From the UHGV virus genome UHGV-0135983: a stretch of DNA of 35,851 nt, one strand, 5' to 3'. Under the pieces are notes generated by a model. It saw nothing but the letters and a program-made list of their open reading frames with translations, was not told the DNA's origin and made no database searches. The position numbers and the translations under genes were made by a program. Below are positions 11,942-35,851 of this stretch, one piece after another. The stretch is from a virus. Every line of letters begins with the position of its first letter. Position 1 is the stretch's first letter.

Positions 11942-11943
11942 CG

Positions 11944-14384: not shown

Positions 14385-14385
14385 G

Positions 14386-14949: not shown

Positions 14950-14962
14950 AGCCTTACCTCAG

Positions 14963-14992: not shown

Positions 14993-15008
14993 AAAGGCAC
15001 CAGCGGCT

Positions 15009-16056: not shown

Positions 16057-16084
16057 AGCGAGGAGAGCGGTCGGAATCCCGACC
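16051..16084 (-). promoter_or_regulatory. Late-promoter candidate b upstream of the capsid gene
   Basis: Minus strand reads GGTCGGGATTCCGACC-N12-AACAAT. Confidence 0.5.
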
Positions 16085-16109
16085 AAATGAGCGAAAGTAA
16101 GCCGTGCTG

Positions 16110-16994: not shown

Positions 16995-17066
16995 ACGCTT
17001 ACCCTTATGAAGAAACTATCGAAGGATATTTAAGAGTAAAAGGCAAGAAAAGTCATTAACTTTAAA

Positions 17067-17095
17067 TAGAAAAAGCCAGCGAAGTTATACTGGCC
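17067..17095 (-). terminator. Intrinsic terminator after the scaffold gene, upstream of the moron
   Basis: Minus strand reads GCCAG, a 10-nt loop, CTGGC, then TTTTTCTATTT. Confidence 0.55.
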
Positions 17096-17115
17096 TTTGA
17101 TATTACCGTGGCGTG

Positions 17116-17964
17116 TCACACTACGGTTTGCTCGCCGTAACGCTTCTGGTAGTACGCTTTAACCTGTGCAGATACGCGTTCATGGTCGGTATGCTTCGGA
17201 TTCATGTACGCTTCGGACTTCATCAGGTCGCGGATTGATTGCTGCTCTGCCGGGTTGCTGTCTGCGCCCGCTGGCGCGTCTTCCTGCATTTCCGCACCGA
17301 TTTTCGCCAGCATGCGGATCACCATCGGGTTATTGCCGATTTCATCAATGCGGCCGCGATCACCTTCATCGGTCAGGGAATTGAACGCGCGGAAAGCCAG
17401 ACCGATATTCTTGTTAAATTCCGCGTCAGTCTTCCAGACTTCGCGCAGCTGCGTGGTGGCCGCCTCCGAATCCAGCGCCGCGGCGCCGTTGACCAGTTCA
17501 GGCGCAATCTGCGCGTATTCGCTGATAATAAATCCCATCTGATCGTTAGTGATGCCCTTGGCGTGCGCCGACTTCATGAATGATTGCATGCGGGGATCGG
17601 CCTTGAACTCGTCCCAGTTGAAGCCCTCGGCCTTCACCTCAGGTGCATAATCATCTGCCGTTTTCGGCGGCGCGTCGCCGCTGCCCATGCGCTTTTCAAG
17701 GTGCGAGTAAGCATGCGCCAGTTTGCGGGCAGAGCCTTCAATGTCGAGTTTTCCACCTTCGCCCATAACGCGGTATTTTTCAGGTATCCAGTCATTCGCG
17801 CCCGGTTCGCCCGCTCCGGTGCTGAGAAGTGTATTGCCAGCAGAATTATCAGCGCCCTGATTTTCAGTACCACCGCCATTGCCACCATCATTACCCCCTG
17901 TGCTGCCTGCTGGCGCTTCGGCGCCCTGCTCGGCGTTCATGAATAAGTGTTTAATCTTCCACAT
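17116..17964 (-). CDS. Scaffolding protein
   Basis: The protein is 282 aa, acidic and low-complexity (a GGNDGGNGGG tract). It lies between the portal and capsid genes. Confidence 0.65.
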   Translation of the reverse strand: MWKIKHLFMNAEQGAEAPAGSTGGNDGGNGGGTENQGADNSAGNTLLSTGAGEPGANDWIPEKYRVMGEGGKLDIEGSARKLAHAYSHLEKRMGSGDAPPKTADDYAPEVKAEGFNWDEFKADPRMQSFMKSAHAKGITNDQMGFIISEYAQIAPELVNGAAALDSEAATTQLREVWKTDAEFNKNIGLAFRAFNSLTDEGDRGRIDEIGNNPMVIRMLAKIGAEMQEDAPAGADSNPAEQQSIRDLMKSEAYMNPKHTDHERVSAQVKAYYQKRYGEQTVV

Positions 17965-18184
17965 CGTCGTTTACTCCATCTACACGGTTGATTTGCATCA
18001 GAATGAAATCGAGCACGGCACGTTGTCCGGCCCGGTAACAGGTTTCGCGGTCGCCCTCGGCGCCGCCGGGAACGTATGCCGCACGCCCGAATCGGCGCGT
18101 TAAATCATCCAGTACCTGCGTGCCGCCCGGCATTTCCTCGAAAATGCGTTTGTAGTCCGCCGGTGATACTTGTTTAGTAGCCAT
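17951..18184 (-). CDS. Small hypothetical virion-module protein
   Basis: The protein is 77 aa and is coupled to the portal stop (ATG at 18184 overlaps TAA). Confidence 0.5.
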   Translation of the reverse strand: MATKQVSPADYKRIFEEMPGGTQVLDDLTRRFGRAAYVPGGAEGDRETCYRAGQRAVLDFILMQINRVDGVNDDVED

Positions 18185-19806
18185 TAACCCCCCGCTACTC
18201 GTTGGCCCAGTGCTGCGCCTGCCTGCTGCCCTGCGGCGGTTGCCGCTTCGCTACCTGCCTGCATCATTAGCGCTTGCCCTGCCTGTTGCTGCTGCGCCTG
18301 CTGGCGCTGCTGGCGAAGTTGCTCGACGGCATCAGACGAGCGAATGACTTTCGCCGGTACGCCCAGCGCATCCGCTATCACGCGGGTCGCTTCGTCGGTG
18401 TCGATTAGGTCGGTGACTTCTGGTGATACCTGCGCCAGATTGGCCACGTTCGCGCCAAGGCGTTCAATAGCGGTGACGTTTTCCAGCTGCTGCGCGCGGG
18501 CAAGCGGCGAGATATAGCGCACGTTGAAATTGGCGTTTTGCAGGCTATCCGGCGCTGGCGGGAATACACCGGCGCGGAATGCCAGACCGAAACAGCGTTC
18601 TACCAGTGGTTGCAGGTATTCAGCCTGGAATCGGCCATAGACCGGGCCGAGCAGCTGGCGGATCAGCGCGACACGCACATGCACTTCGGTAGCGGTCATT
18701 GCCGGGCCGTCCTGCGGTTGCAGCTGGTCGGCCATCATGATTTTGCGGATCGACGCCTGCAGGCGTTCTTCTGCAGTAAACGCCACGTTGAAATCGGCGC
18801 CGGTGAGCAACGGTTTCATGCTGTCTACGCTGTTCGCCACGATGATGCGGCGCGGGCCGACCTTGACCGTGCGCGGATTGAGTACGCCGTCATCTTCGGC
18901 AATCCACATCCCGGCGATAGCCAGATCCTGCGCGGCTTTCTCCATGCGCTTCGTTTCGTTCAGCTCTTTGCAGTCCGGCAGCGCGTCGTATACCGGGCCG
19001 ATACCGTACGGCGTGCCGGGGATTTTCATCCAGCGCGGTACGCAGCAGGGGAATTCGTGATAGCCGGATTCGCGCACGATGAGCTTGCCGCTCACCTCCA
19101 CGTTGTACGATGCAAAGCGCAGGTTTTTAGCCAGGCGCGCATTCACCACGTAGTTTTCACGCGGGAAAATGCAGTGCAGGAAGTCGAATTTGTCATCCGG
19201 CTTTTTGGCGGCTGCGTCGCGAATCTTCTTGCTGACCTTATCCGCGCCGAATTCTTTAATCGCCTGCTCTGCGGTGAGCTGGTAGCGGCGATAAATCGTG
19301 TCCACGATGCCGTCGCGACGGGTGGAAGTGACAAAGCACTGCGCCAGCGGCCACTGCTGGAACGAGAATCCGCCCTCTTCGCGGTCTTCGTCGATGTACA
19401 GCGCAAACCAGCCAGCACACACCACATCGAGATTCACCTCGTAGCCTTCGGCGTCGAAATTGGCGGCGTGGATGTTTTCCCATACCAGCGTTGCGCAGGT
19501 GGACAACCACGCGGCGGCATCATCCGGCAGCGATTCGCTGTCGAGGTTCAGCCACTGCGCGTTTGCCGGGGTCATGCCGGACATGAGAGCAGACGCCAGC
19601 ATGCGGGCGCTGTCGGTGGCCGTGCCGTCAAGCAGCCGTGCCACCTTCGATTTCGCGCTCTGTGCGTCCAGCACCTCATCGGATAGCCCCGCGCCGCGCA
19701 GCGGATAGGTGTAGTCGTAGCATTCCCGCCAGACACTTTCGTGCACCTGTCGGTTGGCTTTCAGCGTATCGGCACGCTTAACCAGCTTTACGGCGAGTTC
19801 ATCCAT
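18184..19806 (-). CDS. Portal (head-to-tail connector, T7 gp8-class)
   Basis: The N-terminal pattern RQVHESVWRECYDYTYPLRG...DGTATDSARMLASALMSGMTP is typical of podovirus connector proteins. The protein is 540 aa. Confidence 0.85.
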   Translation of the reverse strand: MDELAVKLVKRADTLKANRQVHESVWRECYDYTYPLRGAGLSDEVLDAQSAKSKVARLLDGTATDSARMLASALMSGMTPANAQWLNLDSESLPDDAAAWLSTCATLVWENIHAANFDAEGYEVNLDVVCAGWFALYIDEDREEGGFSFQQWPLAQCFVTSTRRDGIVDTIYRRYQLTAEQAIKEFGADKVSKKIRDAAAKKPDDKFDFLHCIFPRENYVVNARLAKNLRFASYNVEVSGKLIVRESGYHEFPCCVPRWMKIPGTPYGIGPVYDALPDCKELNETKRMEKAAQDLAIAGMWIAEDDGVLNPRTVKVGPRRIIVANSVDSMKPLLTGADFNVAFTAEERLQASIRKIMMADQLQPQDGPAMTATEVHVRVALIRQLLGPVYGRFQAEYLQPLVERCFGLAFRAGVFPPAPDSLQNANFNVRYISPLARAQQLENVTAIERLGANVANLAQVSPEVTDLIDTDEATRVIADALGVPAKVIRSSDAVEQLRQQRQQAQQQQAGQALMMQAGSEAATAAGQQAGAALGQRVAGG

Positions 19807-19809
19807 CGA

Positions 19810-20031
19810 TTATGCCCCTAAGGTGTTTTTTGCTGCCTGGGCGCCAGAGGAAAGCAGGGATGAACCTGTATCCGTCGCGCCTTCTGCGCCGCTGGCCAGC
19901 AGGGATGATCCCTGTTTGCGCTTTTTGCGCGCTGCGGCGTCGGCGTTCGCTGCCTTTGCTGCGGCGTCGGCTGCTGCATCTGCCTCAGCCTGCGGATCCT
20001 GCTGTACAACTTTGGGTGCGCTACCACACAT
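19810..20031 (-). CDS. Small Ala-rich hypothetical protein
   Basis: A strong AAGGAG SD lies 7 nt upstream of the ATG. The protein is 73 aa. Confidence 0.55.
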   Translation of the reverse strand: MCGSAPKVVQQDPQAEADAAADAAAKAANADAAARKKRKQGSSLLASGAEGATDTGSSLLSSGAQAAKNTLGA

Positions 20032-24984: not shown

Positions 24985-25214
24985 GTCCGCTTCTCCCGCC
25001 AAAAATTTAATCGTTCTTTGAAAAACTCTCGGTAGCTTTCCGGCGTCGCTGCAATCTGCTCAACGATGGCCTGTCGAGTAACTTTCTTCTCGAACAGCTG
25101 GCGTATGAGTGCCGAGGCGCGCATGTCGTAGTGCTCTTTGATCTGGCACTCCTGCGGCCATTTGGCGCGATTGAGCGGTAAGCCGGGCGGCAAGTAATCT
25201 GATTGCCCGGCCAT
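24981..25214 (-). CDS. Hypothetical protein
   Basis: The protein is 77 aa and lies in the operon with coupled ends. Confidence 0.5.
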   Translation of the reverse strand: MAGQSDYLPPGLPLNRAKWPQECQIKEHYDMRASALIRQLFEKKVTRQAIVEQIAATPESYREFFKERLNFWREKRT

Positions 25215-25217
25215 GCC

Positions 25218-25886
25218 TTATGCCCTCTTGTTCTTCGCTGACTCGATGTAATAACGGGGATCAACGCTGTTAAGCGTGAAGTGAACCACCGGCATATCGT
25301 CGTGACGGGTGATACCCACGTAATTCGACATGAACATGCCGAACACGCGATCGTGAAGTTCTTTAATCGTCACCTGACAATCTGGATAGTGCTTCTGGAT
25401 TAATGCCAGGATGCCCTGGTAAGAAAGCGTTTTGCCTTTCATCACGGCTACCAGCTGCTGCGCGGTGACGCTCCCGGCGTCCTGCTGTTCGTCGCTGGCC
25501 TGCAATGGGCGGATACTCTCCAGCACCAGACGGTGACGGCCAATACTGCCGACGCGCTGGCCCGTTTTTTTATCGAAATGCTCATTGGAGCCAGCAGACC
25601 AGACGGTCGCACCTTCGCTAAGGCGAACGCTTTTTTCACCTCTGGAATAAATCACGGTGCCGATGTGGGTTTTACGCCTGCGGCCGGAAACCGTAGGGGC
25701 GATAATTTCACGCTTAATCGGTTTTTGCGGGGTGATGCCGGGTACAGGGGCCGGACGTGGCGCCGCTACGAACACGGAACGGCTACGGGCGCGCGCGCCG
25801 GCGTTCATGCGCCAGAGAATAACGGGGAGCCAGTTGCAGCCATCATCCGGTTTTACTGGTTTTGGGTAATTTAAATTCGTGGTCAT
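25218..25886 (-). CDS. Hypothetical protein (222 aa)
   Basis: The ATG is preceded by the conserved GAGGAAAGACCAATG cassette. Confidence 0.6.
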   Translation of the reverse strand: MTTNLNYPKPVKPDDGCNWLPVILWRMNAGARARSRSVFVAAPRPAPVPGITPQKPIKREIIAPTVSGRRRKTHIGTVIYSRGEKSVRLSEGATVWSAGSNEHFDKKTGQRVGSIGRHRLVLESIRPLQASDEQQDAGSVTAQQLVAVMKGKTLSYQGILALIQKHYPDCQVTIKELHDRVFGMFMSNYVGITRHDDMPVVHFTLNSVDPRYYIESAKNKRA

Positions 25887-25906
25887 TGGTCTTTCCTCGG
25901 TTAAAT

Positions 25907-25923
25907 CGCGCTGGTCAGGCGCG
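25907..25923 (-). promoter_or_regulatory. Hairpin with CUGACCA loop immediately after the dnaB stop
   Basis: Minus strand reads CGCGC, CUGACCA, GCGCG. Confidence 0.45.
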
Positions 25924-25924
25924 G

Positions 25925-27331
25925 TTAAAATGCATCGGTATTGAATTTCTCAGAGTATTTACGGGGTTGTTTCCGGGGTTTCGCGGCCTCCAGTTGGATA
26001 CGTGTTTTCTCTTTGCCAACATGCTGATCCATTGACAGAAAGTGTCCGTTTTTAAATTCCTGATAAATAATTGCTCCTGCGGCGCTGAAGCGGCTTTTAC
26101 CCAGGATAATTTCAGCGACGCCAGCCGCCGGGCTTTCCGGGTTGTAAACCTCATCGCGGTACAGAAACATGATGCTGTCGGCGTCCTGCTCAATGGATCC
26201 GGAATCACGCAGGTCTGACATGACCGGGCGACGCTGAGCCGCAGGGCGGGAATCGACGGCGCGGGAAAGCTGGCTAAGCGCGAACGTCGGCGTATGCAGG
26301 CGCATAGCCATAGTTTTTAGGTTTCGGGATATGTGGGCGATCGCAAGGTCGTTACGCTCTGCCTTCGGTTTTTTAATCAGGCCAACGTAATCGACAACGA
26401 TCATCGCCAGATGCGGATACCGGCGCTTATGCGTTTCGGCAACGGCGCGGATTTGCTCAATCGTCAGATCGGTAGCATCAACGATCCAGATATCGCGCCC
26501 GTTCATGGTCTCCATGGCCGCTGTAAAGCGCGCCCAGTCCTCGTCCTGCATATCGAGGGGATTACGCAGGCGTGACACTGACATGTTTCCAGAACCCGCC
26601 AGAGAGCGTTCTACGATTTGCGCAGCGGCCATTTCCATGCTGAATATCAACGCGCCACCGCCGGCAGCGGTAACACCATCGACAATCTTCAGCGCAAATT
26701 CTGTTTTACCCATACCCGGACGCCCAGCGACGACAATCAAATCCTGCAGGTTAATTCCGCCGGTCGCATCGTCCAGTTCCTCGATCCCGGTTTTCAGGTT
26801 TCGGGTGCCCTCTTCGCCGTCCATGCGCTTCTGCATGGTTTCCATGTACACCGGCAATAATTCGCTCATGTGTACCGGCTGCACGTCGCCAGTGTCGCCG
26901 GTCATGTCCAGCAGCTGCGCAACGGCAGTTTCGACAACCTGATCGCGCTGTTCCTGGTTTATCGCATCACGAATACCATCCGCACCATCCTGCAGTAATT
27001 GCGCGATGGTTCTGCTTCGCCAGGCCTTAACCATTTTTTTGGCGTAGCCTTTGAGATTGACAATCGATGTCGGGAATTTGCAAATATCGGCGAGATTGGC
27101 CAGCGTCCCCTGTCCGCCAATGGCTTCGCTAATGTACATCATGTCAATTAAGCCGCCGCTCAAGGCCTGCGCTTTGATCACACCGTAAATCTGCCTGTAG
27201 TATGCGACGCTGAAAGCTTCGCTCGGAGTGCTGGCAATCACATCAAAGGCGTCTGGCGTGGCGCCACCGTTCATCAGGCAGCCAAGAACCAGACATTCCA
27301 GCTCCTGAGTGGAATACATCATCTGCATCAT
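25925..27331 (-). CDS. dnaB: Replicative DNA helicase (DnaB family)
   Basis: Walker A is GRPGMGKT. It has the typical DnaB C-terminal RecA-like domain, including IEQDADSIMFLYRDEVY. The protein is 468 aa. Confidence 0.9.
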   Translation of the reverse strand: MMQMMYSTQELECLVLGCLMNGGATPDAFDVIASTPSEAFSVAYYRQIYGVIKAQALSGGLIDMMYISEAIGGQGTLANLADICKFPTSIVNLKGYAKKMVKAWRSRTIAQLLQDGADGIRDAINQEQRDQVVETAVAQLLDMTGDTGDVQPVHMSELLPVYMETMQKRMDGEEGTRNLKTGIEELDDATGGINLQDLIVVAGRPGMGKTEFALKIVDGVTAAGGGALIFSMEMAAAQIVERSLAGSGNMSVSRLRNPLDMQDEDWARFTAAMETMNGRDIWIVDATDLTIEQIRAVAETHKRRYPHLAMIVVDYVGLIKKPKAERNDLAIAHISRNLKTMAMRLHTPTFALSQLSRAVDSRPAAQRRPVMSDLRDSGSIEQDADSIMFLYRDEVYNPESPAAGVAEIILGKSRFSAAGAIIYQEFKNGHFLSMDQHVGKEKTRIQLEAAKPRKQPRKYSEKFNTDAF

Positions 27332-28311
27332 AAAGCGCCCTCCCTGGTCTTACGCAATGTCTCTGGTTTCATCAGATAGTCAAAGCTGGCGCGCCATCCG
27401 CCATTTTCACCAAAGTAAAAATCGGAGGCGTCAGCGCGGAATTTTTCGAAATAGCCCAGAAATGCGCCCGTGGTTTTGTTTTTCATATGGGCGGCCAGAC
27501 GGGTGATCATCCGGCGGCGGTCTGTGTCCAGTTCAGCAGCAGGCAGAACGTCAGCAAAAATTTCGTTGTAGCCGTTCATAACGGCTTCCGGATCAATATC
27601 GGTTTCGGTCACCGCCCATGCTTCAGCGTCAGCGAGATAACCATCAAAGCGGTTTACCCGGCAGATGTTCGCTGGCTTCGGCAGGCTATCGCCACGGCGG
27701 CGCCATGTGGCCAGCACCCAGCGGATAACTAACTGCAATTCGTCCAGGGTGTACCCTTCCCGGGTGGTGGTCGGCGTCAGCATCATCACAAACGGTTTCA
27801 GGTCACGGCAGCGGGTACCGGTTTGCTCGTTGTAAAATTCCAGCGCTTTTTTAGCATCAGAATTAATTTTTTCATCGCCTTCCCCCGTCTGGGGGTTAGG
27901 GGGATCTTTAGGTTCTATGACTGGTTCAAAAGAGTGACTGGTTCTGGTGCCGCCACACGGCATAGGGGCTATGCTTTTTGGCGGCATACCTGTGCTTTCT
28001 GACGGCATAGGGGCTATGCTTTTTGGCGGCATAGGGTTATCAAGTTTCATACAGTACAAATTCGACGCGTTACCCTTCCCGTTTTTTACGCCCGGGCGAT
28101 TTTCTTTCACCAGCAGGCCCATGGAAATTAACGCATCGATATGGTCACGCACCGCGCTTTTGCTGCACTCGCAGTGATCCGCAATATGTTTGTAAGACGG
28201 CCAGCATTCGCCGTAATCATTGGCGTTATCAGCCAGTTTGATCAGCACCAGTTTTCGAATCGGGTTTCCGGTCTTGATTGCCATTGCTTTGGCCATAAGC
28301 GTCATACTCAT
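27328..28311 (-). CDS. Replication initiator: N-terminal winged-HTH plus phage conserved C-terminal domain
   Basis: The ATG at 28311 follows the upstream stop. The N-terminus is KLVLIKLADNANDYGECWPSYKHIADHCECSKSAVRDHIDALISMGLL. An ATGA overlap links it to dnaB. Confidence 0.75.
   Translation of the reverse strand: MSMTLMAKAMAIKTGNPIRKLVLIKLADNANDYGECWPSYKHIADHCECSKSAVRDHIDALISMGLLVKENRPGVKNGKGNASNLYCMKLDNPMPPKSIAPMPSESTGMPPKSIAPMPCGGTRTSHSFEPVIEPKDPPNPQTGEGDEKINSDAKKALEFYNEQTGTRCRDLKPFVMMLTPTTTREGYTLDELQLVIRWVLATWRRRGDSLPKPANICRVNRFDGYLADAEAWAVTETDIDPEAVMNGYNEIFADVLPAAELDTDRRRMITRLAAHMKNKTTGAFLGYFEKFRADASDFYFGENGGWRASFDYLMKPETLRKTREGAL
27958..28033. repeat. Iteron-like repeats inside the initiator gene (putative ori)
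   Basis: The 31-bp unit CGGCATAGGGGCTATGCTTTTTGGCGGCATA occurs twice (27958-27988 and 28003-28033). This gives four CGGCATA cores at about 22-23 bp spacing. An AT-rich patch at about 27861-27892 lies next to them. Confidence 0.6.
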
Positions 28312-28313
28312 AG

Positions 28314-28535
28314 TCAAATCCCCAGCGAGTCAGCCAACTGACGGCAGGCGATTTCGTATTCTTTCTGGGTGAGTCCCGCTTCCTGCAGGTCTGCCTTGCG
28401 CAGTTCATAGCGTTCCCAGATTGTCAGCGCAGTAGCGCGACGCTCTTCGAAAATCGATTCGATATCTTCCATCGGGACTTGTACCCCGTTCCGGCGAAAC
28501 CCATTCCGCCAGGTGATGCGGTCTTGTGTTCTCAT
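28314..28535 (-). CDS. Small protein with Arg-rich N-terminus
   Basis: The ATG at 28535 follows the GAGGAAAGACCAATG cassette and gives MRTQDRITWRNGFRRNG... Confidence 0.5.
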   Translation of the reverse strand: MRTQDRITWRNGFRRNGVQVPMEDIESIFEERRATALTIWERYELRKADLQEAGLTQKEYEIACRQLADSLGI

Positions 28536-28555
28536 TGGTCTTTCCTCGGTACAGG

Positions 28556-29002
28556 TTAAACGCTGGTCAGGCGCTGTGTTTCTCGCATAGCTTGCAATGC
28601 TCTGGCGACTTGCTGCGGCCCGTCTCTGGCGTCGAGTAACAACGCGATAATCGCCGCTGCAAACTCGCGAATGGCCACACAAATTAAATACTGGGTGGAC
28701 ATACCCAAGCGCGCGTAACGTTCTGCCGGCAGCGCCGCTTCCATCGCTTTGACCAGCGCCAGAGTTTTGGCTCTCGCGGCTTTGGTCTCGCCTCGCAACC
28801 AACGAAAAATTTGTTGGCGGTTATTGTTGATTGCCCGCCAGTCGGCGTTTCCATCTGCATCTTCGATCTGGTGCAGCTTCAGCGAACCGGTATTACCACC
28901 AAGACGAAACCACATGCGGCTTATCTCGATAGCAACCAGCTCCTGCCCGCTTTCCGCTGCCCAGTTAAAGATCTCTCGTTTAAGTTCTTCGAGGTATTCC
29001 AC
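28556..29002 (-). CDS. CII-like / YdaT-family regulatory protein
   Basis: The protein is 148 aa with a GTG start after GGAG. It lies directly downstream of the YdaS/Cro-like gene, as in the Rac ydaS-ydaT pair. Confidence 0.5.
   Translation of the reverse strand: MEYLEELKREIFNWAAESGQELVAIEISRMWFRLGGNTGSLKLHQIEDADGNADWRAINNNRQQIFRWLRGETKAARAKTLALVKAMEAALPAERYARLGMSTQYLICVAIREFAAAIIALLLDARDGPQQVARALQAMRETQRLTSV
28559..28575 (-). promoter_or_regulatory. Hairpin with CUGACCA loop at the 3' end of the CII-like gene
   Basis: Minus-strand RNA reads AGCGC, CUGACCA, GCGUU. It includes a G.U pair that would be an A.C mismatch on the other strand. Confidence 0.45.
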
Positions 29003-29023
29003 TTCGAGCGTCTCCTGTCGCTG

Positions 29024-29044
29024 AAAATTGATTAAGCGTAATCA
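29024..29044 (-). terminator. Weak tR1-like hairpin between cro-like and cII-like genes
   Basis: Minus strand reads TGATTA, CGCT, TAATCA, then ATTTTC. The stem is AT-rich and only 6 bp. Confidence 0.3.
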
Positions 29045-29064
29045 GATTTCGATAACGCCTGTAG

Positions 29065-29262
29065 TTATGCTTTAGACGTGTTTTGCTCTTCGTAAAAAGT
29101 AGGGTCGTATTTCAAGGCGCCTGCAGTTACATGCTCAAGTCGCGCAGCTCGCTTTTCAGGAACAACAGCACCCCAGCGGGTTACAGCGACTTGAGAGATA
29201 CCTAATGCACGCGCAACAGCGGTTTTAGTTCCAAAAAATCTGATAACAGTTTCGGTCTTCAT
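29065..29262 (-). CDS. cro: Cro-like HTH repressor (YdaS family)
   Basis: The HTH is GTKTAVARALGISQVAVTRW. The protein is 65 aa, has an AGGAGAGG SD, and is divergent from the repressor gene. Confidence 0.75.
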   Translation of the reverse strand: MKTETVIRFFGTKTAVARALGISQVAVTRWGAVVPEKRAARLEHVTAGALKYDPTFYEEQNTSKA

Positions 29263-29272
29263 AGTTTCCTCT

Positions 29273-29333
29273 CCTAACGTCAGTTAGGAACATAAATACT
29301 AACGAAAGTTATGTCAAGTTAACTTATATTATG
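29273..29333. promoter_or_regulatory. Immunity switch: three TAAC-N4-GTTA-type operators overlapping divergent promoters
   Basis: O1 is CCTAACGTCAGTTAGG (29273-29288). O2 is ACTAACGAAAGTTATG (29298-29313). O3 is GTTAACTTATATTATG (29318-29333, weaker). The minus-strand PR-like promoter is TTGACA (29317-29312), 17 nt, TATGTT (29294-29289). Confidence 0.6.
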
Positions 29334-29744
29334 GACATGAAAAAATTGACCTTTAACGATCGCATTACATCGAGACGGAAAGAGCTTGGCTTAACCCAAC
29401 AGCAGCTCGCCGATGCCGTTGGCATATCTGGCGTAAGCGTCTACAAGTGGGAAGCAGGTATTAACACCCCAAAAGGGCAAAATCTGTTTTCTCTCGCTGA
29501 GGCTCTTCGTTGCTCTCCGACATGGTTACTTAACGGAACCGATAGCGATGAACCGTTGAAGGCGGAAGACCTTTTACCTCGGTTAGATGATCGCCAAAAG
29601 CTATTGCTTGATCTTTTTGACTCCCTACCTGAATCAGAAAAAGATAGACACATCAATGAGTTGAAAGATAAAGTTGACGGATTCCAGCGATTGTTTGATG
29701 AGTTACTTTTGGTAAAAAAGAAAAAAAACACTCCAAAAAAATAA
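29331..29744 (+). CDS. cI: CI-like XRE-family repressor lacking an S24 peptidase domain
   Basis: The HTH is LTQQQLADAVGISGVSVYKWEAG. The protein is only 137 aa with a helical, charged C-terminus. There is no SD, and TATATT at 29325-29330 would give a leaderless mRNA starting at the second ATG (29337). Confidence 0.8.
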   Translation: MDMKKLTFNDRITSRRKELGLTQQQLADAVGISGVSVYKWEAGINTPKGQNLFSLAEALRCSPTWLLNGTDSDEPLKAEDLLPRLDDRQKLLLDLFDSLPESEKDRHINELKDKVDGFQRLFDELLLVKKKKNTPKK

Positions 29745-29748
29745 ATTA

Positions 29749-29780
29749 AAGGCAATGTTTTCAATGCATTGCCTTTTTTT
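29749..29780 (+). terminator. Intrinsic terminator after the repressor gene
   Basis: The sequence is GGCAATG, a loop, CATTGCC, then TTTTTTT. Confidence 0.7.
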
Positions 29781-29793
29781 ACACCTCAAATAT

Positions 29794-29844
29794 TAACTTT
29801 TGTTAGTAAAAAATATTGCCAATAAAAATACCTTTGGTTATGCT
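29794..29844 (+). promoter_or_regulatory. Fourth operator copy plus candidate promoter(s) for the downstream + strand genes
   Basis: The operator is TTAACTTTTGTTAG (TAAC-N4-GTTA at 29794-29805). One promoter option is TTGTTA-18-AAAAAT. The other is TTGCCA (29816), 17 nt, TATGCT (29839). Confidence 0.4.
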
Positions 29845-29926
29845 TCATCACATCAACGACGCACTAACCACGCGGCAGTTGTTCAGAAACGTTCCGCCGA
29901 CCCGGCGTTAAGGGGGAGGAGAAGTG

Positions 29927-30145
29927 ATGGAAAACGCTGTATTAGGTGCCGTCGGACCAACGCTGAATGTGTTGCTGGATGCACTGAAAGAAGAGAAAGG
30001 AGCCGCCAACGTCGAGGACGTCAAAGCGGTCATCCAGGTTATCAGTGAAGTTGTAGGCAAGTGCGATGGTGATCTGGCTACTGGTTACGCGGTTTGGGAT
30101 GAACTGCTGAATGCGGTGTTACGACATATTTCGACAAAGGGTTAA
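29927..30145 (+). CDS. Hypothetical acidic 72-aa protein in the immunity-adjacent slot
   Basis: A strong GGGGGAGGAG SD precedes the ATG at 29927. Confidence 0.5.
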   Translation: MENAVLGAVGPTLNVLLDALKEEKGAANVEDVKAVIQVISEVVGKCDGDLATGYAVWDELLNAVLRHISTKG

Positions 30146-30320
30146 GGCTAATACCCTCTGGTGGGTATAACTCTCGATTGATTCTCACGACTGCTGACAT
30201 GAAATCTACACGGTTATCAATCGGCATCGTAGACAAAATTACTGTCAATAATACCTGGTGTGCTTTCAGCTCTTCTCTGACTGCAGCTAGCTCAGATTTA
30301 AGTTGTTCAAGTTCCGACAT
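30078..30320 (-). CDS. Hypothetical 80-aa protein with an N-terminal coiled-coil, convergent with and overlapping the previous gene
   Basis: The ATG at 30320 follows AAGGG and gives a protein-like sequence, MSELEQLKSELAAVREELKAHQ... I could not find a convincing promoter. Confidence 0.35.
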   Translation of the reverse strand: MSELEQLKSELAAVREELKAHQVLLTVILSTMPIDNRVDFMSAVVRINRELYPPEGISLNPLSKYVVTPHSAVHPKPRNQ

Positions 30321-30424
30321 TTGTAATCCCTTTTGCTGTTGTTGGAATGGCAAAGGTAGCACGACCGGGCGTGTTGAAAAATCCCGGAACTGAATTCTTC
30401 GGGTCGCCGACAGTACGATGACAT

Positions 30425-30772
30425 GCGGGAAAGACCGCAACGAACATCCATTGCTGTGTGTAGTCTTGGCCGGGCGCCCCGGGCATTTTTTTAACACAGT
30501 AACGATTTATGCGACCCTTCAGTGAAAACTGAAGCCCTCGAAAAGAGGGACCCCGTGAGGAAAGACCAGTGAGCCTGACCAGCTCTGGCGCCGGGAAAGA
30601 CCGGGAGGAAAGACCAATGACCTACGGGCATGACCAGCCCTGACAGCCGGGAAAGACCGGCAACCTTTAGATGGCAAAAGGCCCGCACAAGGCGGGCCAG
30701 TTACCCCGAACGGTGACCAAACCATTCGGACTTATCACAAGCGACCAAGCTTGTGATGAGGAAAGACCAATG
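30425..30772 (+). repeat. ORF-poor array of repeated hairpins and RBS cassettes (possible structured RNA or regulatory array)
   Basis: CGGGAAAGACCG occurs three times (30426, 30592, 30648) and GAGGAAAGACCA three times (30557, 30605, 30758). The array holds seven stem-loops plus the terminator hairpin. It includes an imperfect tandem unit at 30557-30604 and 30605-30661. Confidence 0.55.
30470..30492 (+). terminator. Plus-strand intrinsic terminator
   Basis: The sequence is CCGGG, CGC, CCCGG, then GCATTTTTTT. The T7 run is on the + strand only. Confidence 0.5.
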
Positions 30773-30824
30773 CCGACAGAGTCAACACTGATCGGCTCTG
30801 AGTATACATCAACAAGGAGTCGCT

Positions 30825-31148
30825 ATGGAAGCGCTTACCATCCCCGTGAAGCTGTACATTCACTACATCACCAACACTTTCTCATCCGATAAATATCACG
30901 TTTCAATCTGTGACATGTCACGGAACCACCCGGACATTTATGTGCTGCTGGAAACGCGTGATATCACCATCGATATAAACCAGCCGGAACCCTTCGACCT
31001 TATAGCCTTGCAGGTTGACCAGCTGCGCAGCCAGAAAGAAAACCTTGCTGCCGACGCTCAACGCCAGATCGCCGCGGTCGATGACAAAATTCAGCAGCTG
31101 CTTTGCATCGATCATTCTCAGATTGAAGAAAGTGATATTCCCTTCTGA
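30825..31148 (+). CDS. Hypothetical protein (107 aa)
   Basis: An AAGGAG SD lies 6 nt upstream. The C-terminus is coiled-coil-like. Confidence 0.6.
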   Translation: MEALTIPVKLYIHYITNTFSSDKYHVSICDMSRNHPDIYVLLETRDITIDINQPEPFDLIALQVDQLRSQKENLAADAQRQIAAVDDKIQQLLCIDHSQIEESDIPF

Positions 31149-31155
31149 GGCGCTT

Positions 31156-31401
31156 ATGAAGAAAAATCCAGTTATCGAAAAAGTTATGGCTTCCGGCCTG
31201 TCTGTATTCGAGCATGAAAATAATAGCGACTTTGGTTCAGGAACTATGCATATCACTATTATCGGTGGTGTCCGACGCGTCGAATTCTATCCAACGACAG
31301 GCACAGTCTATGCCAATGCCGAGAAGGGAAAGTTTCCTGCATTCCGACAGAAAAAAGCCGGTATCGAAGTTGCAATCCGTCTCGCTAAATCCGGCGCCTG
31401 A
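31156..31401 (+). CDS. Hypothetical protein (81 aa)
   Basis: The ATG at 31156 follows GAGG and gives MKKNPVIEKV... Confidence 0.55.
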   Translation: MKKNPVIEKVMASGLSVFEHENNSDFGSGTMHITIIGGVRRVEFYPTTGTVYANAEKGKFPAFRQKKAGIEVAIRLAKSGA

Positions 31402-31430
31402 CCTGCGCCAGTAACTAAGAGGAAAGACCA

Positions 31431-33650
31431 ATGACCATCTACAACGGCTTATTTGAGCCAAAGAAATCGGCGATTAAAGACTGCGGCGCCGTGCAGCTGG
31501 CGATCGCCATCGATGCGCCAAACAAAAAAGTGGCCGAAAGCATTATGACCGGCAAACTCTGGGAATCATACCCGGCCAATGGTGACAACTATTTCAAACC
31601 GAAACTGTGGGAACACGTTGAAGGCCAGCCGCTGCCGACCGTTGGCCAGTTCGATGAGTCATTCGCCCAGCAGCATACTTTTGACGGTGAAAAATGGGTT
31701 TCTACTGCGCAGGATAGCGCTTCCGGAAGCAGTGCAGGTTTACCTGCCGACGATGAAGTGATCGACCTGATGACCGTTTCCGCAGAGGAACGCTTTGCTG
31801 CCGTCCTGCTTTTTAGCACCGCTGCGATTGATGGCCATCTTTATTCTCAGGTTGTGGATTATCTGGATAACCTGAAAAACCACGATGGCGAATTTGAAGA
31901 GGAAGATCGCTTTAACTTTAATGTGCTGTGCGCCCTACAAAATAACTTCCCGGTTCAAAGCATGCATGTGGAAGGTCTGAATAACCTTGTTCAGGGGATT
32001 TTCTCCCACTTTGAAAACCAGACGCCAGGCAAAGCGGCTATCTCTCAGTTCGTTAAACGCTGGCTTGAGAATCCGGGCAAGCGCGACGAACTGGCCCCCG
32101 GCGTATATAAAAATACCGCTCTCAGCACCAGCACCAGCACCAGCACCGATGATAAAACACCCGTGGTAATTTCTAAGCGGGGTTATAAACACACATATGC
32201 AACGCTGGATCAGGAGATCGCTACCGCCCTTCTCCCGCTGGCGCCTGATGCGCCGGTACTATCCGGAAACCTTCTGGACGCTAAGAAGATGATTGCCGAT
32301 GACCGGGAAGATTTTAAACGCTGGTCTGCATCGCTGCACACCACTCCGCAGATACTCAAATATGACCGCGCCAGCATCTTCGGTGTAGTGCAGAACGTAC
32401 CGGCGAAAGATACCTACCATTTCCCTGACAGCCTGCGCCGCCATATCGATTCATGGCTGGAGGCCAACGGCCGCTTTGAAGAAACCGATACAGGATCCGT
32501 TAAACAGACAGAGGCAACGCAAAATATCGCCTCAAACGTGGGCGAAAAAGCGGAAGTGCCGCAGACGGTTGTAACCGATAACCAAGCGAAACAGGCGCGT
32601 GAGGCGCTCAACGATATGGGCTATGGCGTATATGCATCTGGTGAAGGTGCGGAACCGGAAGATAAGTTAAGCGTTAAGGCTGAGAAAATAGCAGATGAAG
32701 CTGCTCGTTTGTCTCGTGATATTAACCTCAAAGATCGCATGCCAGATGCCGGAGATTTGATTCCAGCAATTCAACCAAATGAAAATATAGCCTCAAAAAA
32801 AATTGAATCATATCTATCTGAATTGAATGACGACCAGGCCAAAGCAAACCTTAGCGTCTGGAATCGCGTCCAGCGCACAGATCCGGCCTTCGTCGAAAAG
32901 AACAGTTTCGGCGCAGGGCTTCACTCAATCCGGGCGCAGTACATGCTGATGCGCGCAACGGAAGTTCTCGGAATGGAAGGAACCGGTTGGGGCGTTGATA
33001 TCAAAGAAGAGCGCATAGATCGAGGTGTGCCGCTTATGGAGCCAATACAGGACCAATCAGGAAAAATAATTGGCCAGAAACCGGTAAGGGACGGGGATGG
33101 CTCATTATTCTGTTTATCCGTACATACAATTCGGATTGAACTCTGGTACCTGCGAGACGGAAAGAAGGGGCGCATTCCGGCCTATGGACATACGGATTAC
33201 ATCACCAAGGGTGGTGATGGTGCATTAAAAATGGAGAAAGAAGCCGCCAAAAAATCACTGACTGACGCTACAACCAAAGCACTATCCCATCTCGGATTTG
33301 GTGCAGACGTGTACATGAACATGCATAACGACAACGAATACACTTCAAAATTGAATGAGATATTCGAAATCAAAAAAGCCAGCGAAAGCATAGAAGATAT
33401 AGTGCGACTTCGTCAGGAATTAGACGACGATCTTACCTCCGTTGCTGAAACCCTATCTACTGGCGTGACTGTTAACGAAGTTGAAAAGGTTTTTGGCACG
33501 ATAGCCCGAAAACTCGAAGTTCACCGCAAGGATGCAGAATCAAAAGGCGATACACAGCGCTCTCGGTACCTCAGTGGCCGGTTGCGCCGCCTGACTGAAA
33601 TCAAAAATGGACGTCTCGCCGAACTAAATAAATCCGAGGAGAAAGCATAA
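31431..33650 (+). CDS. Large fusion protein: unknown ~470-aa N-terminal region plus Rad52/Sak-type single-strand annealing domain
   Basis: The C-terminal part contains GLHSIRAQYMLMRATEVLGMEGTGWG...KEAAKKSLTDATTKALSHLGFGADVY, a Rad52-family signature. The RBS cassette lies at 31419. Confidence 0.6.
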   Translation: MTIYNGLFEPKKSAIKDCGAVQLAIAIDAPNKKVAESIMTGKLWESYPANGDNYFKPKLWEHVEGQPLPTVGQFDESFAQQHTFDGEKWVSTAQDSASGSSAGLPADDEVIDLMTVSAEERFAAVLLFSTAAIDGHLYSQVVDYLDNLKNHDGEFEEEDRFNFNVLCALQNNFPVQSMHVEGLNNLVQGIFSHFENQTPGKAAISQFVKRWLENPGKRDELAPGVYKNTALSTSTSTSTDDKTPVVISKRGYKHTYATLDQEIATALLPLAPDAPVLSGNLLDAKKMIADDREDFKRWSASLHTTPQILKYDRASIFGVVQNVPAKDTYHFPDSLRRHIDSWLEANGRFEETDTGSVKQTEATQNIASNVGEKAEVPQTVVTDNQAKQAREALNDMGYGVYASGEGAEPEDKLSVKAEKIADEAARLSRDINLKDRMPDAGDLIPAIQPNENIASKKIESYLSELNDDQAKANLSVWNRVQRTDPAFVEKNSFGAGLHSIRAQYMLMRATEVLGMEGTGWGVDIKEERIDRGVPLMEPIQDQSGKIIGQKPVRDGDGSLFCLSVHTIRIELWYLRDGKKGRIPAYGHTDYITKGGDGALKMEKEAAKKSLTDATTKALSHLGFGADVYMNMHNDNEYTSKLNEIFEIKKASESIEDIVRLRQELDDDLTSVAETLSTGVTVNEVEKVFGTIARKLEVHRKDAESKGDTQRSRYLSGRLRRLTEIKNGRLAELNKSEEKA

Positions 33651-34210
33651 TGACTTCCACTACTGCTATTGCCATCGCCGCGGACTATCAGAACCTGCTG
33701 CAACTGCTGGAAAGCTCTGATGACCTGACTCCGGAAATGATCGCCGATACCCTCGAAGGCATGGAAGGAGAGCTAGCCGATAAACTGGATTCCATCATGG
33801 TTATCGCACGTAATAACCTCGGCAATGCCAGCACCTGCGATGATGAAATAAAACGCTTGGCCGAACGTAAGAAGTTCTTTGAGAATAAGGATAAGGCTCT
33901 GCGTAAGTATATTCTCTCCTGCCTGATGGCGGCCGGGCTGGATAAGCTGAAAACGGCAAAAAACACTTTCACTGCTCGCAAAGGTAGCGTAAGCGTTGTG
34001 ATTGATAATACCGATCTTCTTCCCGATGAACTGGTGACTACCCAGGTTGTTATCGCGCCCGATAAAAAGGCCATCAAGGAAGCGATTGAATCAGCACAGG
34101 CAGCAGCGGCCCAGATTACCGCTGACGGCGGAGAGATACCGGAAGAACTGTTAAACCCAGTGCCGGGCGCTCACCTTGAGATTGGCGAACGTTCATTACA
34201 GGTGCGCTGA
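33650..34210 (+). CDS. Sipho_Gp157-family protein
   Basis: ADTLEGMEGELADKLDSI...EIKRLAERKKFFENKDKALRKYIL...KLKTAKNTFTARKG matches the family pattern. An ATGA overlap links it to the upstream gene. Confidence 0.7.
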   Translation: MTSTTAIAIAADYQNLLQLLESSDDLTPEMIADTLEGMEGELADKLDSIMVIARNNLGNASTCDDEIKRLAERKKFFENKDKALRKYILSCLMAAGLDKLKTAKNTFTARKGSVSVVIDNTDLLPDELVTTQVVIAPDKKAIKEAIESAQAAAAQITADGGEIPEELLNPVPGAHLEIGERSLQVR

Positions 34211-34211
34211 T

Positions 34212-34397
34212 ATGCTCAAAATCACCCTGAAGCGAGGGGATGCCATTCACGTTATTTTTCCTGATGGCACCAAAGGTAAGATCGAAGCCTGCGCACGTTG
34301 CGAGTTTGACTTTAATTTTCCCTATAGCGTGAAAATCACCAGAGAAAATGGCGCGCTACGGAATAAACCAAACCTGATTAAGCCTAATCAGAAATAA
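34212..34397 (+). CDS. 61-aa protein with a CsrA-like sequence pattern
   Basis: The sequence is MLKITLKRGDAIHVIF...NFPYSVKITREN. My recollection of E. coli CsrA is [15 protein letters not shown]...[12 protein letters not shown], the same 61-aa length. In an ungapped alignment L2, T5, G9, N35, P37, V40, R44 and E45 coincide. Confidence 0.4.
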   Translation: MLKITLKRGDAIHVIFPDGTKGKIEACARCEFDFNFPYSVKITRENGALRNKPNLIKPNQK

Positions 34398-34446
34398 AAA
34401 CCAACCATCGCTAGCATAGCTGCCCCTTTTGAAAACGGAGAACGCT

Positions 34447-34641
34447 ATGCTGCGATGGCAACCGGGAGCTGTATTGCTCTCAGATTTCGATATCAAGATT
34501 GGCCGGTTATCCGCCAGCGTACGAAAGAAGACCCTGACCAGGACTGAAATCGAACGCGCATGCGAAGAAGCTGATAACGCGATCGCCGGCATGATGAGGA
34601 AAGACCATGGTCAGAAAAAACGACCTTCTCACCGACGCTGA
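34447..34641 (+). CDS. Hypothetical small protein
   Basis: The ATG at 34447 follows GGAG. It overlaps the next gene by 35 nt, so support is weak. Confidence 0.3.
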   Translation: MLRWQPGAVLLSDFDIKIGRLSASVRKKTLTRTEIERACEEADNAIAGMMRKDHGQKKRPSHRR

Positions 34642-34831
34642 GATGATTGAATTTACAGGTTGTAAACAACCAATCAAACAAAAAGAGGTTCTAGATCGTG
34701 GAGGTGTCTCATACATACAGGATAGAGAGGGGCGCCCTATGGTTACCTGGACGCATATTAATGCAGTTCTGAATGGACAAATAACCATCCAATTAGGCAG
34801 CGAAGAAAAACCAAATTTTGAGGCGATATAG
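34607..34831 (+). CDS. DUF4224-type protein, a likely excisionase or recombination directionality factor
   Basis: LLTDAEMIEFTGCKQPIKQKEVLDRGGVSYIQDREGRPMVTW fits the DUF4224 pattern. It lies immediately upstream of int (TAGATG junction). Confidence 0.6.
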   Translation: MVRKNDLLTDAEMIEFTGCKQPIKQKEVLDRGGVSYIQDREGRPMVTWTHINAVLNGQITIQLGSEEKPNFEAI

Positions 34832-35851
34832 ATGGGAAGGAGAAGAAAAGATCCAACAGATAATAAATTGCCACCTCGTGTTTCAAAAACCAAAACTCGG
34901 TATTACTACAAACCCACAGCACGAGAAACTATAACGCTAGGGCCAATAACTCTTTCAATGTCTGCATTGTGGAAACGTTATGAGGAAGAAAGACGAAATC
35001 ACTCAGGAGTAATGACGTTTGAAAAGCTCTGGGGAATGTTTTTAAAGAGCGCCTATTACACCGAACTCGCAATTCGTACCCAAAAAGATTATTTGCAACA
35101 TCAAAAAAAATTATTAGTCGTTTTTGGAAAAATGAAAGCTGATCTTATCAAGCCCGAAGAAGTTCGCCAGTTTATGGATCGACGTGGCCTAAAAAGCAAA
35201 AATCAGGCTAATCAGGAAATGAGTAGTATGTCGAGGGTGTTTCGATGGGGTTTTGAACGTGGTTATGTAAAAGGCAACCCATGTGCCGGGGTTAGTAAGT
35301 TTTCGTTAAAGGCACGTGAACAATATATTACCGATGAAGATTATCTGGTTATCTATAAAAATGCTGATTCAGTTGTGCGGGCTGCAATGGAAATATCATA
35401 CCTGTGTGCTGCCCGCCAGGCTGACGTGTTGGGATTGTGCTGGATGCAGATAACAGACAAAGGGATATTCATTCAACAGGGTAAGACGGGGAAAAAGCAG
35501 ATCAAGGTCTGGACCCCTCGCCTTCATCAAGCCTTCGTTACGGCACAAATAGATTGCCCCAAACTGTCTGCTAACGGACTAGTGATCTACAACAACGATA
35601 AAGGCCAGTTTATCCGTAAGACGTTCAATAATCGCTGGCTTAAAGCCGTACGCGCAGCACAAAACGAATTGGGGCGACAACTGGACTATACATTTCACGA
35701 TATCAAAGCGAAGGGGATTTCAGATTTCGAGGGTAGCAGTAAGGACAAGCAGATGTTCAGTGGCCACAAGACGGAAAGTCAGGTTCTGGTGTATGACAGA
35801 AAGGTACAAATAAGCCCTACTTTGAATCTACCCGTAATTGGCGGTGATTGA
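34832..35851 (+). CDS. int: Tyrosine integrase (lambda Int family)
   Basis: It has an arm-binding-type N-terminus. The C-terminal catalytic region contains ...RQADVLGL...HDIKAKG...GHKTESQVLVYDR. The stop codon is the last triplet of the window. Confidence 0.9.
   Translation: MGRRRKDPTDNKLPPRVSKTKTRYYYKPTARETITLGPITLSMSALWKRYEEERRNHSGVMTFEKLWGMFLKSAYYTELAIRTQKDYLQHQKKLLVVFGKMKADLIKPEEVRQFMDRRGLKSKNQANQEMSSMSRVFRWGFERGYVKGNPCAGVSKFSLKAREQYITDEDYLVIYKNADSVVRAAMEISYLCAARQADVLGLCWMQITDKGIFIQQGKTGKKQIKVWTPRLHQAFVTAQIDCPKLSANGLVIYNNDKGQFIRKTFNNRWLKAVRAAQNELGRQLDYTFHDIKAKGISDFEGSSKDKQMFSGHKTESQVLVYDRKVQISPTLNLPVIGGD

Follow-up and report, generated by a model that had tools for sequence, protein, structure and literature searches.

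What does a small RNA hairpin do that recurs, with differing stems, just ahead of the early genes of a prophage? The virus genome UHGV-0135983 raises this question. The stretch analysed here (35,851 nt, called the window) is a lambdoid prophage with two divergent early operons. A preliminary description of its letters had located one hairpin with a CUGACCA loop directly after the dnaB stop (25923-25907) and another in the last codons of the cII-like gene (28575-28559), both on the minus strand. Both are exactly there, and each is followed by UUUAACC and then GAGGAAAGACCAAUG, as had been described. At the DNA level, TTTAACC is followed by an exact GAGGAAAGACCAATG at 25898-25884 and 28547-28533, and the TAA within the TTTAACC after the 28559 hairpin is the stop of the cII-like gene. 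We find that the hairpin belongs to a two-part element that is real and under strong selection, and that works as sense-strand RNA in each operon.

The first part, hairpin A, has a G+C-rich stem of 4-5 bp and a 7-nt loop of the form N-U-R-A-C-C-N, mostly CUGACCA. An unstructured, A/C-rich linker of 5-25 nt leads to the second part, the 9-mer GGAAAGACC, whose GGA is a Shine-Dalgarno (SD) core in a region predicted to be unpaired. The 9-mer ends 0-7 nt before a start codon, and the gene beginning there is the first of its block, in both early operons (coordinates in Table 1). The window holds ten exact copies of the 9-mer, all in sense and all within 25888-34606; they lie at 25888 and 28537 on the minus strand and at 30428, 30559, 30594, 30607, 30650, 30760, 31421 and 34598 on the plus strand. 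Across the 35.8 kb there is no copy outside the early operons and none in antisense.

The other parts of the element are enriched in the window as well. CTGACCA occurs 12 times where 2.9 occurrences are expected, and GAGGAAAGACCAATG with up to three mismatches occurs 8 times (0.9 expected). Hairpins with a stem of at least 4 bp and a relaxed N-U-R-ACC-N loop number 8, compared with 1.4 in 300 shuffles (maximum 5); five of these 8 (25907, 28559, 30571, 30626 and 31393) are members of the family, all in sense. A covariance model spanning hairpin, linker and 9-mer, which had the window copies among its training sequences, recovered three full cassettes at E <=1e-10: the 25907 copy (25888-25925, 58.4 bits, E=5e-12), the 28559 copy (28537-28577, 53 bits) and the 31393 copy (31391-31429, 52.3 bits). 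Leader copies scored at E ~0.03-0.05, and the late region of the window gave no match. The folding energy of the small hairpins is not significant alone (z -0.5 to -1.9). A scan of the window found no promoter-like or terminator-like site at any cassette. Rfam 15 returned no match to the window at the gathering threshold and, at E values up to 5, none on the cassettes. A literature search with the literal motif sequences gave unrelated primer matches only, and we found neither a publication nor an Rfam entry for the motifs.

Four hairpins with four stems and one loop had been counted before. The stems do differ; the loops vary too (AUGACCA, CUGACCU), and the copy at 34534, which was included in that count, is degenerate in the window. 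Its orthologue in relatives is a perfect GGACU-CUGACCC-AGUCC hairpin about 57 nt upstream of the xis cassette. In the window the loop UGACCA at 34534-34540 is complementary to UGGUCA in xis codons 1-3 (34608-34614) and paired with it in the minimum free energy (MFE) structure; this complementarity is found in the window only and is not kept in relatives. The copies at 25907 and 28559 share the reading frame R-L-T-S-x-stop, which suggests that the cassette, comprising gene end and intergenic region, spread by duplication.

For comparison with relatives we collected 51 loci by means of p73, the 73-aa protein encoded after the 28559 copy, a selection that is blind to RNA. Viral contigs scanned for the exact 15-mer GAGGAAAGACCAATG supplied further loci, and so did a scan for the hairpin-plus-9-mer pattern with one genome per species, giving about 100 related prophage loci in total. 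They come from Klebsiella, Raoultella, Citrobacter, Enterobacter, Escherichia, Serratia, Rosenbergiella, Shimwellia and Pseudescherichia. All loci of the lineage contain the 9-mer, in 5-11 copies each. Where p73 gave the orientation of a locus, plus-strand 9-mers lie only downstream of the divergent promoters, and minus-strand ones almost only on the pL side.

The alignment of these copies supports an RNA structure. The covariation set comprised every N-U-R-ACC-W heptamer with a 9-mer at most 45 nt downstream, with no condition on the flanks (102 distinct 23-mers, seventeen unrelated sequences retained). In the five flanking pairs, 75.7% of the cells are paired, compared with 59.1% in shuffles, and changes on both sides affect 73 cells, compared with 33.5; none of 500 shuffles reached either value. 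When the register was slid by 1-3 columns, only 19-46% of the cells were paired. There are 11 distinct fully paired 4-bp stems, among them GCGC, GAGC, GGGC, ACGC/GCGU, GGGA/UCCU and GGGG/CCCU. Orthologues of the 25907 hairpin have the stems UGCGC/GCGCA, CACGC/GCGUG and AGCGC/GCGCU. A hairpin search upstream of the 9-mer that was blind to the loop returned CTGACCA (71), GACCAA (22), ATGACCA (11), GAAAGA (9) and CTGACCT (8). Conversely, 379 of 446 family-type hairpins in 1.1 Mb have GGAAAGAC within 45 nt downstream.

The strand on which the element acts can also be read from these data. The 28559 copy contains the one G.U pair that had been reported for it, and in relatives this pair becomes A-U (CAG to CAA) or G-C (GUU to GCU). 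The stems contain 24 G.U cells and 7 A.C cells, as predicted for pairing in the sense strand. In 41 protein-anchored relatives, all 133 matches of the covariance model were in sense; training sequences match such a model by construction, so that the orientation and the absence elsewhere are the informative part. The model and the search of relatives that the preliminary description had proposed thus bear out its view of an RNA-level function in the sense orientation of each operon.

Selection on the hairpin acts on its nucleotides. At the 3' end of the cII-like gene, synonymous sites are frozen over GAAACACAGCGCCUGACCAGCGUUUAA and variable just upstream. Two related loci (L072 and L119) have lost most of the cII-like gene, yet keep the hairpin stretch in its last codons together with the cassette, and the reading frame of the hairpin differs among copies. 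An antisense OOP-like terminator at the cII 3' end was rejected, as the stem would have an A.C mismatch on the opposite strand and no U-tract accompanies the dnaB copy. A function in replication was likewise rejected: orientation flips at the divergent promoters (~29300) and not at the iterons (~28000). The ~3-4 iterons (ACGGCATAGGGGCTATGCTTTTTGGCGGCATA and related sequences, 27957-28036) lie inside the O-like gene and are presumed to be the replication origin.

A strand bias extends beyond the elements themselves. On the early sense strand (25200-34900), GACC outnumbers GGUC by 57 to 9 (33 to 9 with the motifs masked), compared with 72 to 41 in the late genes (1-20000), and GACC/GGTC is the most strand-asymmetric tetranucleotide pair of the early sense strand. 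The depletion of GGUC is consistent with selection that keeps GACC unpaired; a general purine-rich bias contributes.

In the distant relatives (Serratia, Rosenbergiella, Shimwellia, Enterobacter, Pseudescherichia, Citrobacter and Escherichia) the early proteins are 40-60% identical to those of the window, and despite this GGAAAGACC and CUGACCA are nearly invariant. What varies is the linker and the distance between 9-mer and AUG (0-7 nt), and relatives do not keep UUUAACC. In the window, g222, p73, the exonuclease-like gene and xis each have a 9-mer ahead of their start, as do their orthologues or replacements in relatives. At mosaic joints, two upstream and two downstream gene families were seen in all four combinations, cassettes flank inserted genes on both sides, and one cassette joins differing upstream and downstream genes. 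The cassette sits at the boundaries of shuffled genes, and the family combinations are reticulate.

The densest group of elements lies in the leader of the pL operon. A conserved RNA in this leader ends in a conserved intrinsic terminator, upstream of which one hairpin with a GAAAGA loop (hairpin B) is located. The array 3' of this terminator contains the following unit twice: a pseudo-cassette GAGGAAAGACCA(A/G)UG, an N-UGACCA hairpin and a CCGG-GAAAGA-CCGG hairpin. It is followed by hairpin H5 with a UGACCAAA loop, hairpin H6 with a GACCAA loop and one further cassette, after which the real gene start lies at 30825 with its own AAGGAG. Folding of the whole leader region gave z = -7.3, and H5-H6 gave z = -5.5. 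The stems of the GAAAGA hairpins covary in relatives (CCCG/CGGG, GUCUG/CAGAC, GCGG/CCGC). The stem of H6 (8-12 bp) is wholly different among relatives (CCGUAGGG/CCCUACGG, GCUACAGGG/CCCUGUAGC, CGGGA/UCCCG), with the GACCAA loop kept. Single-stranded GACC(A) is the common denominator of all elements.

Leader peptides could be rejected as the reason for this arrangement, since the AUGs are unconserved in relatives (often ACG) and no peptide is kept. This indicates that the 9-mer is selected beyond, or apart from, starting an open reading frame (ORF).

The segment between pL and the array shows a likeness of its own. The leader RNA at 30388-30494 (+) resembles RprA, with a full-length match to Rfam RF00034 at 32.6 bits (gathering score 70; E 0.024 in a 261-nt search). 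With rprA of E. coli K-12 it has in common CAACGAA, 17 contiguous bases (TTGCTGTGTGTAGTCTT) and the terminator; this is the part of RprA that pairs with the rpoS leader. In relatives the RprA-like segment is kept immediately 3' of pL, in E. coli prophages it is unannotated, and the prophage may carry it as a mimic of a host small RNA (sRNA). Part of the pL leader is present, without annotation, in 454 of 5426 complete E. coli genomes, and among cultured phage records only two have the leader.

We tentatively favour the explanation that the element is a modular cassette which acts at the RNA level to initiate translation or to regulate initiation, and which would be read by a conserved factor. 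The cassette would be a portable translation-initiation region, in which the hairpin keeps a strong, open ribosome-binding site insulated from the upstream gene, whichever it is. Loop and SD-adjacent AAGACC(A) would offer single-stranded GACC(A) to a trans-acting factor, and this factor would set or time the translation, or a coupled stability, of the genes in the early block. The leader array could then be a decoy, a titrating site or a loading site. Being shared, the cassettes might also serve as joints for the exchange of gene blocks. Because the motifs are nearly invariant while the phage proteins diverge, a conserved component of the host is a likelier reader than a phage protein that evolves fast.

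Several points weigh against this explanation. The leader contains copies without start codons, so that translation initiation cannot be the sole role. With the variable distance between 9-mer and AUG, some relatives have a sub-optimal SD spacing of 7-14 nt from the start. A role as insulator alone leaves the conservation of the loop unexplained. Complementarity to 16S rRNA does not go beyond chance, no partner was identified among the candidates that we looked at, and we infer every functional step from sequence.

The candidate partners were of different kinds. Pairing with rRNA was rejected, as 16S rRNA lacks the complements of CUGACCA, GACCAA, GGAAAGACC and AAGACCAAUG and offers chance 5-mers only. 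Neither the window nor the relatives contain antisense copies of the motifs that could encode a complementary RNA. The phage MT-A70 methylase acting on RACC (DRACH-like) is not co-conserved: among 65 relatives with at least 2.5 kb downstream of g222 it is present in 36, and several of those without it reach the DUF1367 gene. When duplexfold was used to look for pairing between the RprA-like leader RNA and the cassettes, only long-range, non-specific structures resulted. A likeness to the hammerhead (CUGANGA/GAAA) has the wrong topology, a difference at position 6 and no Rfam match. CsrA sites are not indicated, since the hairpin loops lack GGA, and mimicry of the tRNA-Val anticodon arm (loop U-G-A-C, A35 and C36) does not cover the GACCAA and 9-mer contexts.

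Two identities with rRNA were seen. GGAAAGACC is identical to positions 2056-2064 of E. coli 23S rRNA (L173, E. coli rrlH), in the peptidyl-transferase loop around A2058, and AUGACCAGCC equals 16S positions 302-311. The 23S match is probably a coincidence, because the chance is about 1.7% per 9-mer and many comparisons were made. If it is not, the cassettes could mimic the A2058 region of the rRNA for a ribosome-directed enzyme or factor.

A more far-reaching version of the favoured explanation is conceivable, though doubtful. The cassettes may form a previously unrecognised, phage-wide post-transcriptional regulon, in which a conserved and probably host-encoded RNA-binding factor recognises GACC(A) in U-turn loops and beside the SD of the gene that opens each early block. 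The pL leader, composed of the RprA-like sRNA module, the terminator and the array without start codons, would be its sponge or timer.

Among the other explanations, processive antitermination of the nut type was the one put forward originally, with the hairpins as boxB and p73 as a speculative, Arg-rich N-like partner. Hairpins of the boxB type, with a phage 21-like U-turn loop or a lambda-like GAAAGA loop, would load a factor of the phage or the host, or would themselves bind RNA polymerase in the manner of put, and carry transcription past terminators such as that at 30470-30494. The elements are in sense in both early operons, and GAAAGA hairpins lie just past pL and upstream of the conserved terminator, although most leader copies are downstream of it. 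A likeness to P22 boxB (GACAA) had been suggested. The loop is nearer to the boxB hexaloop of phage 21, CUAACC (PMC12550061), which is contained in the CUAACCA variant and differs from CUGACCA by one base; this is a resemblance only. This surviving resemblance is the reason why we keep antitermination as a rival.

Other features of nut sites are missing. Neither early leader, nor the neighbourhood of any hairpin, contains a boxA (YGCUCUU(U)A), and boxA-like matches in the window are at chance level (27 versus 27.7). Instead of one promoter-proximal site there are ten 9-mers and five hairpins at gene junctions (5-11 9-mers per phage), with the hairpins tied to an SD-containing 9-mer. The first copy on the pR side, at 28575, is about 730 nt from pR and past the putative tR1. 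The put RNA measures about 70 nt, has two long stems and is found at one site per operon (PMC9378689). No early ORF matched an N protein in Pfam or PHROG.

The case for p73 in particular could not be upheld. It has no match in Pfam, in the PDB or by fold, and it is encoded in the pR operon, not by the first pL gene. The AlphaFold2 model has a disordered N-terminus, a beta-hairpin and three helices. Only an N-terminal motif, DRITWRNGxxLNG, is conserved; it is not an Arg-rich helix, and both Arg2 and Arg15 are replaced in relatives. A profile search found no p73 homologue in the 8 kb of the motif-bearing prophage locus L243. p73 was thus rejected as an N-like protein, and nut-like antitermination is, in our judgement, unlikely.

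A weak tR1-like hairpin at 29024-29044 had also been mentioned. On the minus strand it reads CTGATT-ACGCTT-AATCAA, and the YdaT-family cII-like gene begins shortly downstream. The hairpin agrees at 11 of 12 positions with the published YdaT operator, TTGATTN6AATCAA (PMC9986795). A role as DNA operator is more likely than one as terminator, and it may be both.

The elements could alternatively punctuate the mRNA. RNase E or a phage enzyme like T4 RegB would cut in the linker or the SD and leave the hairpin as a protective 3' end of the upstream message and a defined 5' end for the downstream block, which would also be a means of turning early genes off. Such a process would agree with the intercistronic position of the elements, where a single-stranded linker rich in A and U (GAUUUAACC, GUUUAACC, AAUAUAACC) comes after the hairpin, and with the confinement of the cassettes to the early operons. 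However, a 5-bp stem is a weak exonuclease barrier (-6 to -9 kcal/mol), the linker sequence is poorly conserved, and the invariant loop and 9-mer are left unexplained. This explanation also appears improbable.

It is quite improbable that the element is nothing but a good ribosome-binding site that was spread by duplication and kept as a short homology for the recombination of lambdoid modules. The frame shared by the 25907 and 28559 copies and the position of cassettes at mosaic joints would follow from such a linker. It does not account for motifs that are near-invariant across genera while the flanking proteins are 40-60% identical, for compensatory stem changes around a fixed loop, or for ordered arrays in a non-coding leader.

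Oriented DNA sites for a protein (L5 stoperator-like) or a methylation target, which would fit RACC as the part common to all motifs, an asymmetric 9-mer that lies in short intergenic spaces in the direction of transcription, and the AGACC within GGAAAGACC in a phage that encodes MT-A70 and Dam-type methylases, seem highly improbable, given that covarying stems with a fixed loop and the excess of G.U over A.C point to single-stranded sense RNA, that the operator regions of pR and pL (29262-29330 and 29790-29850) hold no GGAAAGACC even with 1 mismatch, and that MT-A70 is found in only 36 of the 65 relatives.

Table 1. Elements and genes of the two early operons in the window
Feature	Coordinates	Strand	Remarks
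Hairpin A, CGCGC-CUGACCA-GCGCG	25907..25923	-	2 nt past dnaB stop; MFE structure
SD-containing cassette GAGGAAAGACCAAUG	25884..25898	-	AUG 25886 starts g222 (phrog_4183)
Hairpin A, AGCGC-CUGACCA-GCGUU	28559..28575	-	one G.U pair; last codons of YdaT-family cII-like gene
Cassette GAGGAAAGACCAAUG	28533..28547	-	AUG 28535 starts p73 (phrog_2465)
Hairpin A, GGCGC-CUGACCU-GCGCC	31393..31409	+	loop holds UGA stop of gene 31156-31401
Cassette GAGGAAAGACCAAUG	31419..31433	+	AUG 31431 starts 739-aa exonuclease-like gene
Degenerate hairpin A, AGACC-CUGACCA-GGACU	34529..34545	+	central A.A mismatch; within coding region; 7.8 bits in covariance model
Cassette GAGGAAAGACCAUGG	34596..34610	+	AUG 34607 starts DUF4224 (xis-like) gene
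Hairpin B, GCGG-GAAAGA-CCGC	30425..30438	+	in RprA-like segment, upstream of terminator
Intrinsic terminator	30470-30494	+	conserved; ends leader RNA
Leader pseudo-cassette GAGGAAAGACCAGUG	30557..30571	+	without conserved ORF; AUG/GUG often ACG or absent in relatives
Leader hairpin A, GAGC-CUGACCA-GCUC	30571..30585	+	
Hairpin B, CCGG-GAAAGA-CCGG	30591..30604	+	GGAAAGACC spans stem-loop junction
Leader pseudo-cassette GAGGAAAGACCAAUG	30605..30619	+	
Leader hairpin A, GGGC-AUGACCA-GCCC	30626..30640	+	
Hairpin B, GCCGG-GAAAGA-CCGGC	30646..30661	+	
Leader hairpin H5, CCGAACGG-UGACCAAA-CCAUUCGG	30706..30729	+	GACCAAACC conserved in relatives
Leader hairpin H6, UCACAAGC-GACCAA-GCUUGUGA	30735..30756	+	directly 5' of 30758 cassette
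Leader cassette GAGGAAAGACCAAUG	30758..30772	+	AUG is ACG in many relatives
cI-like repressor gene	29331-29744	+	
pR promoter	29317-29289	-	
cro	29262-29065	-	pR operon
YdaT-family cII-like gene	29002-28556	-	pR operon
p73 (73-aa gene, phrog_2465)	28535-28314	-	pR operon
O-like initiator gene	28311-27328	-	pR operon
dnaB	27331-25925	-	pR operon; stop codon 25927-25925
g222 (222-aa gene, phrog_4183)	25886-25218	-	pR operon, then nin-type genes
pL promoter	29816-29844	+	long leader next
72-aa ORF	29927-30145	+	in ~500-bp insertion
80-aa ORF (phrog_20080)	30320-30078	-	in ~500-bp insertion, overlapping the 72-aa ORF
107-aa gene	30825-31148	+	pL operon
81-aa gene	31156-31401	+	pL operon
739-aa exonuclease-like gene	31431-33650	+	pL operon; then Gp157-family gene, xis, int
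DUF4224 (xis-like) gene	AUG at 34607	+	pL operon

Some further observations concern the phage and its surroundings. Its closest cultured relatives, at about 89% identity, are BUCT708 and BUCT709 (L001/L002; OM816835, OM816834), which were deposited as Stenotrophomonas phages. The recorded host may be wrong, since all other relatives found are prophages of Enterobacterales; close homologues of p73 occur in Klebsiella, Raoultella and Citrobacter. In the window, a segment of about 500 bp (29927-30320) is inserted between pL and the conserved leader. Most relatives lack it, and there the leader lies directly 3' of pL. A weak Rfam match to STnc240 at 29702-29784 (+) (27.5 bits, E=1.1) covers the 3' end of cI and a terminator; an sRNA like co293, svsR, has been reported at the cI 3' end in the E. 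coli prophage NC-SV (PMC12803456).

The prophage lineage is common, and besides E. coli it has a wide distribution in Klebsiella, Raoultella, Citrobacter, Enterobacter and Serratia. With protein identity down to about half, an unchanged 9-mer and 7-nt loop point to a strong constraint on early gene expression in a lambdoid phage without N. Identification of the reader would reveal how delayed-early genes are controlled after prophage induction, and it could also explain the start-associated sequences (SAS) of other phages. The cassette could provide a compact, portable element for expression and insulation in enterobacteria.

How does the element compare with known systems? Like the nut sites of lambdoid phages, it involves short sense-RNA hairpins in both early operons. 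It differs from them in its many copies at gene junctions, as opposed to one per operon, and in the coupling of the hairpin to an SD-containing 9-mer. The loops of lambda boxB are GAAAA and GAAGA, and the companion GAAAGA loops found here resemble them. CUAACCA and CUGACCA resemble the CUAACC of phage 21 boxB (PDB 1NYB), with one extra base in the loop.

The put RNA of HK022 is likewise a structured RNA that acts in cis in both early operons of a lambdoid phage lacking N. We found no similarity of the elements to this RNA, which has a triplex in addition to its two long stems and its length of ~70 nt, with one site per operon (PMC9378689), whereas the hairpins described here have 17 nt and many copies. 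The PeSL mobile regulatory cassettes of T4-type phages (Arbiol et al. 2010, PMC2839356) are also repeated stem-loop cassettes in early regions that flank variable genes and mark recombination joints. A PeSL consists of a terminator-like stem-loop and an early promoter; here there is neither a promoter consensus nor a U-tract, and the second part is a ribosome-binding motif.

Short asymmetric intergenic sites in many copies, oriented with transcription, also bring to mind stoperators. These sites of cluster A mycobacteriophages (L5 gp71 sites) were reportedly described by Brown et al. in 1997, and PMC3203893 cites them. Stoperators are double-stranded DNA sites for a repressor, identical to the promoter operator and spread genome-wide. 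The motifs of the window, in contrast, do not occur at the operators; they are restricted to the early operons and come with an RNA hairpin whose stem covaries.

The closest published analogue is the SAS/ESAS of cluster K mycobacteriophages (Pope et al. 2011, PMC3203893), for which the function of SAS is unknown. In both cases, an asymmetric conserved motif combines an SD core with invariant extra bases that have no rRNA partner, lies a few nt ahead of the start codon in some of the non-structural genes, always in one orientation, and is associated with genes of differing families. About half of the SAS have an upstream inverted repeat. The SAS sequence GGGATAGGAGCCC is unrelated to GGAAAGACC, the host phylum differs, and the leader array without start codons is a feature of the present phage. 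The ESAS arms are 17 bp long and conserved in sequence; since changes in them do not support RNA pairing, the authors favour a DNA-binding site (PMC3203893). Here the arms are 4-5 bp long, variable and covarying, and it is the loop that is conserved. We therefore regard the two systems as analogous, not homologous.

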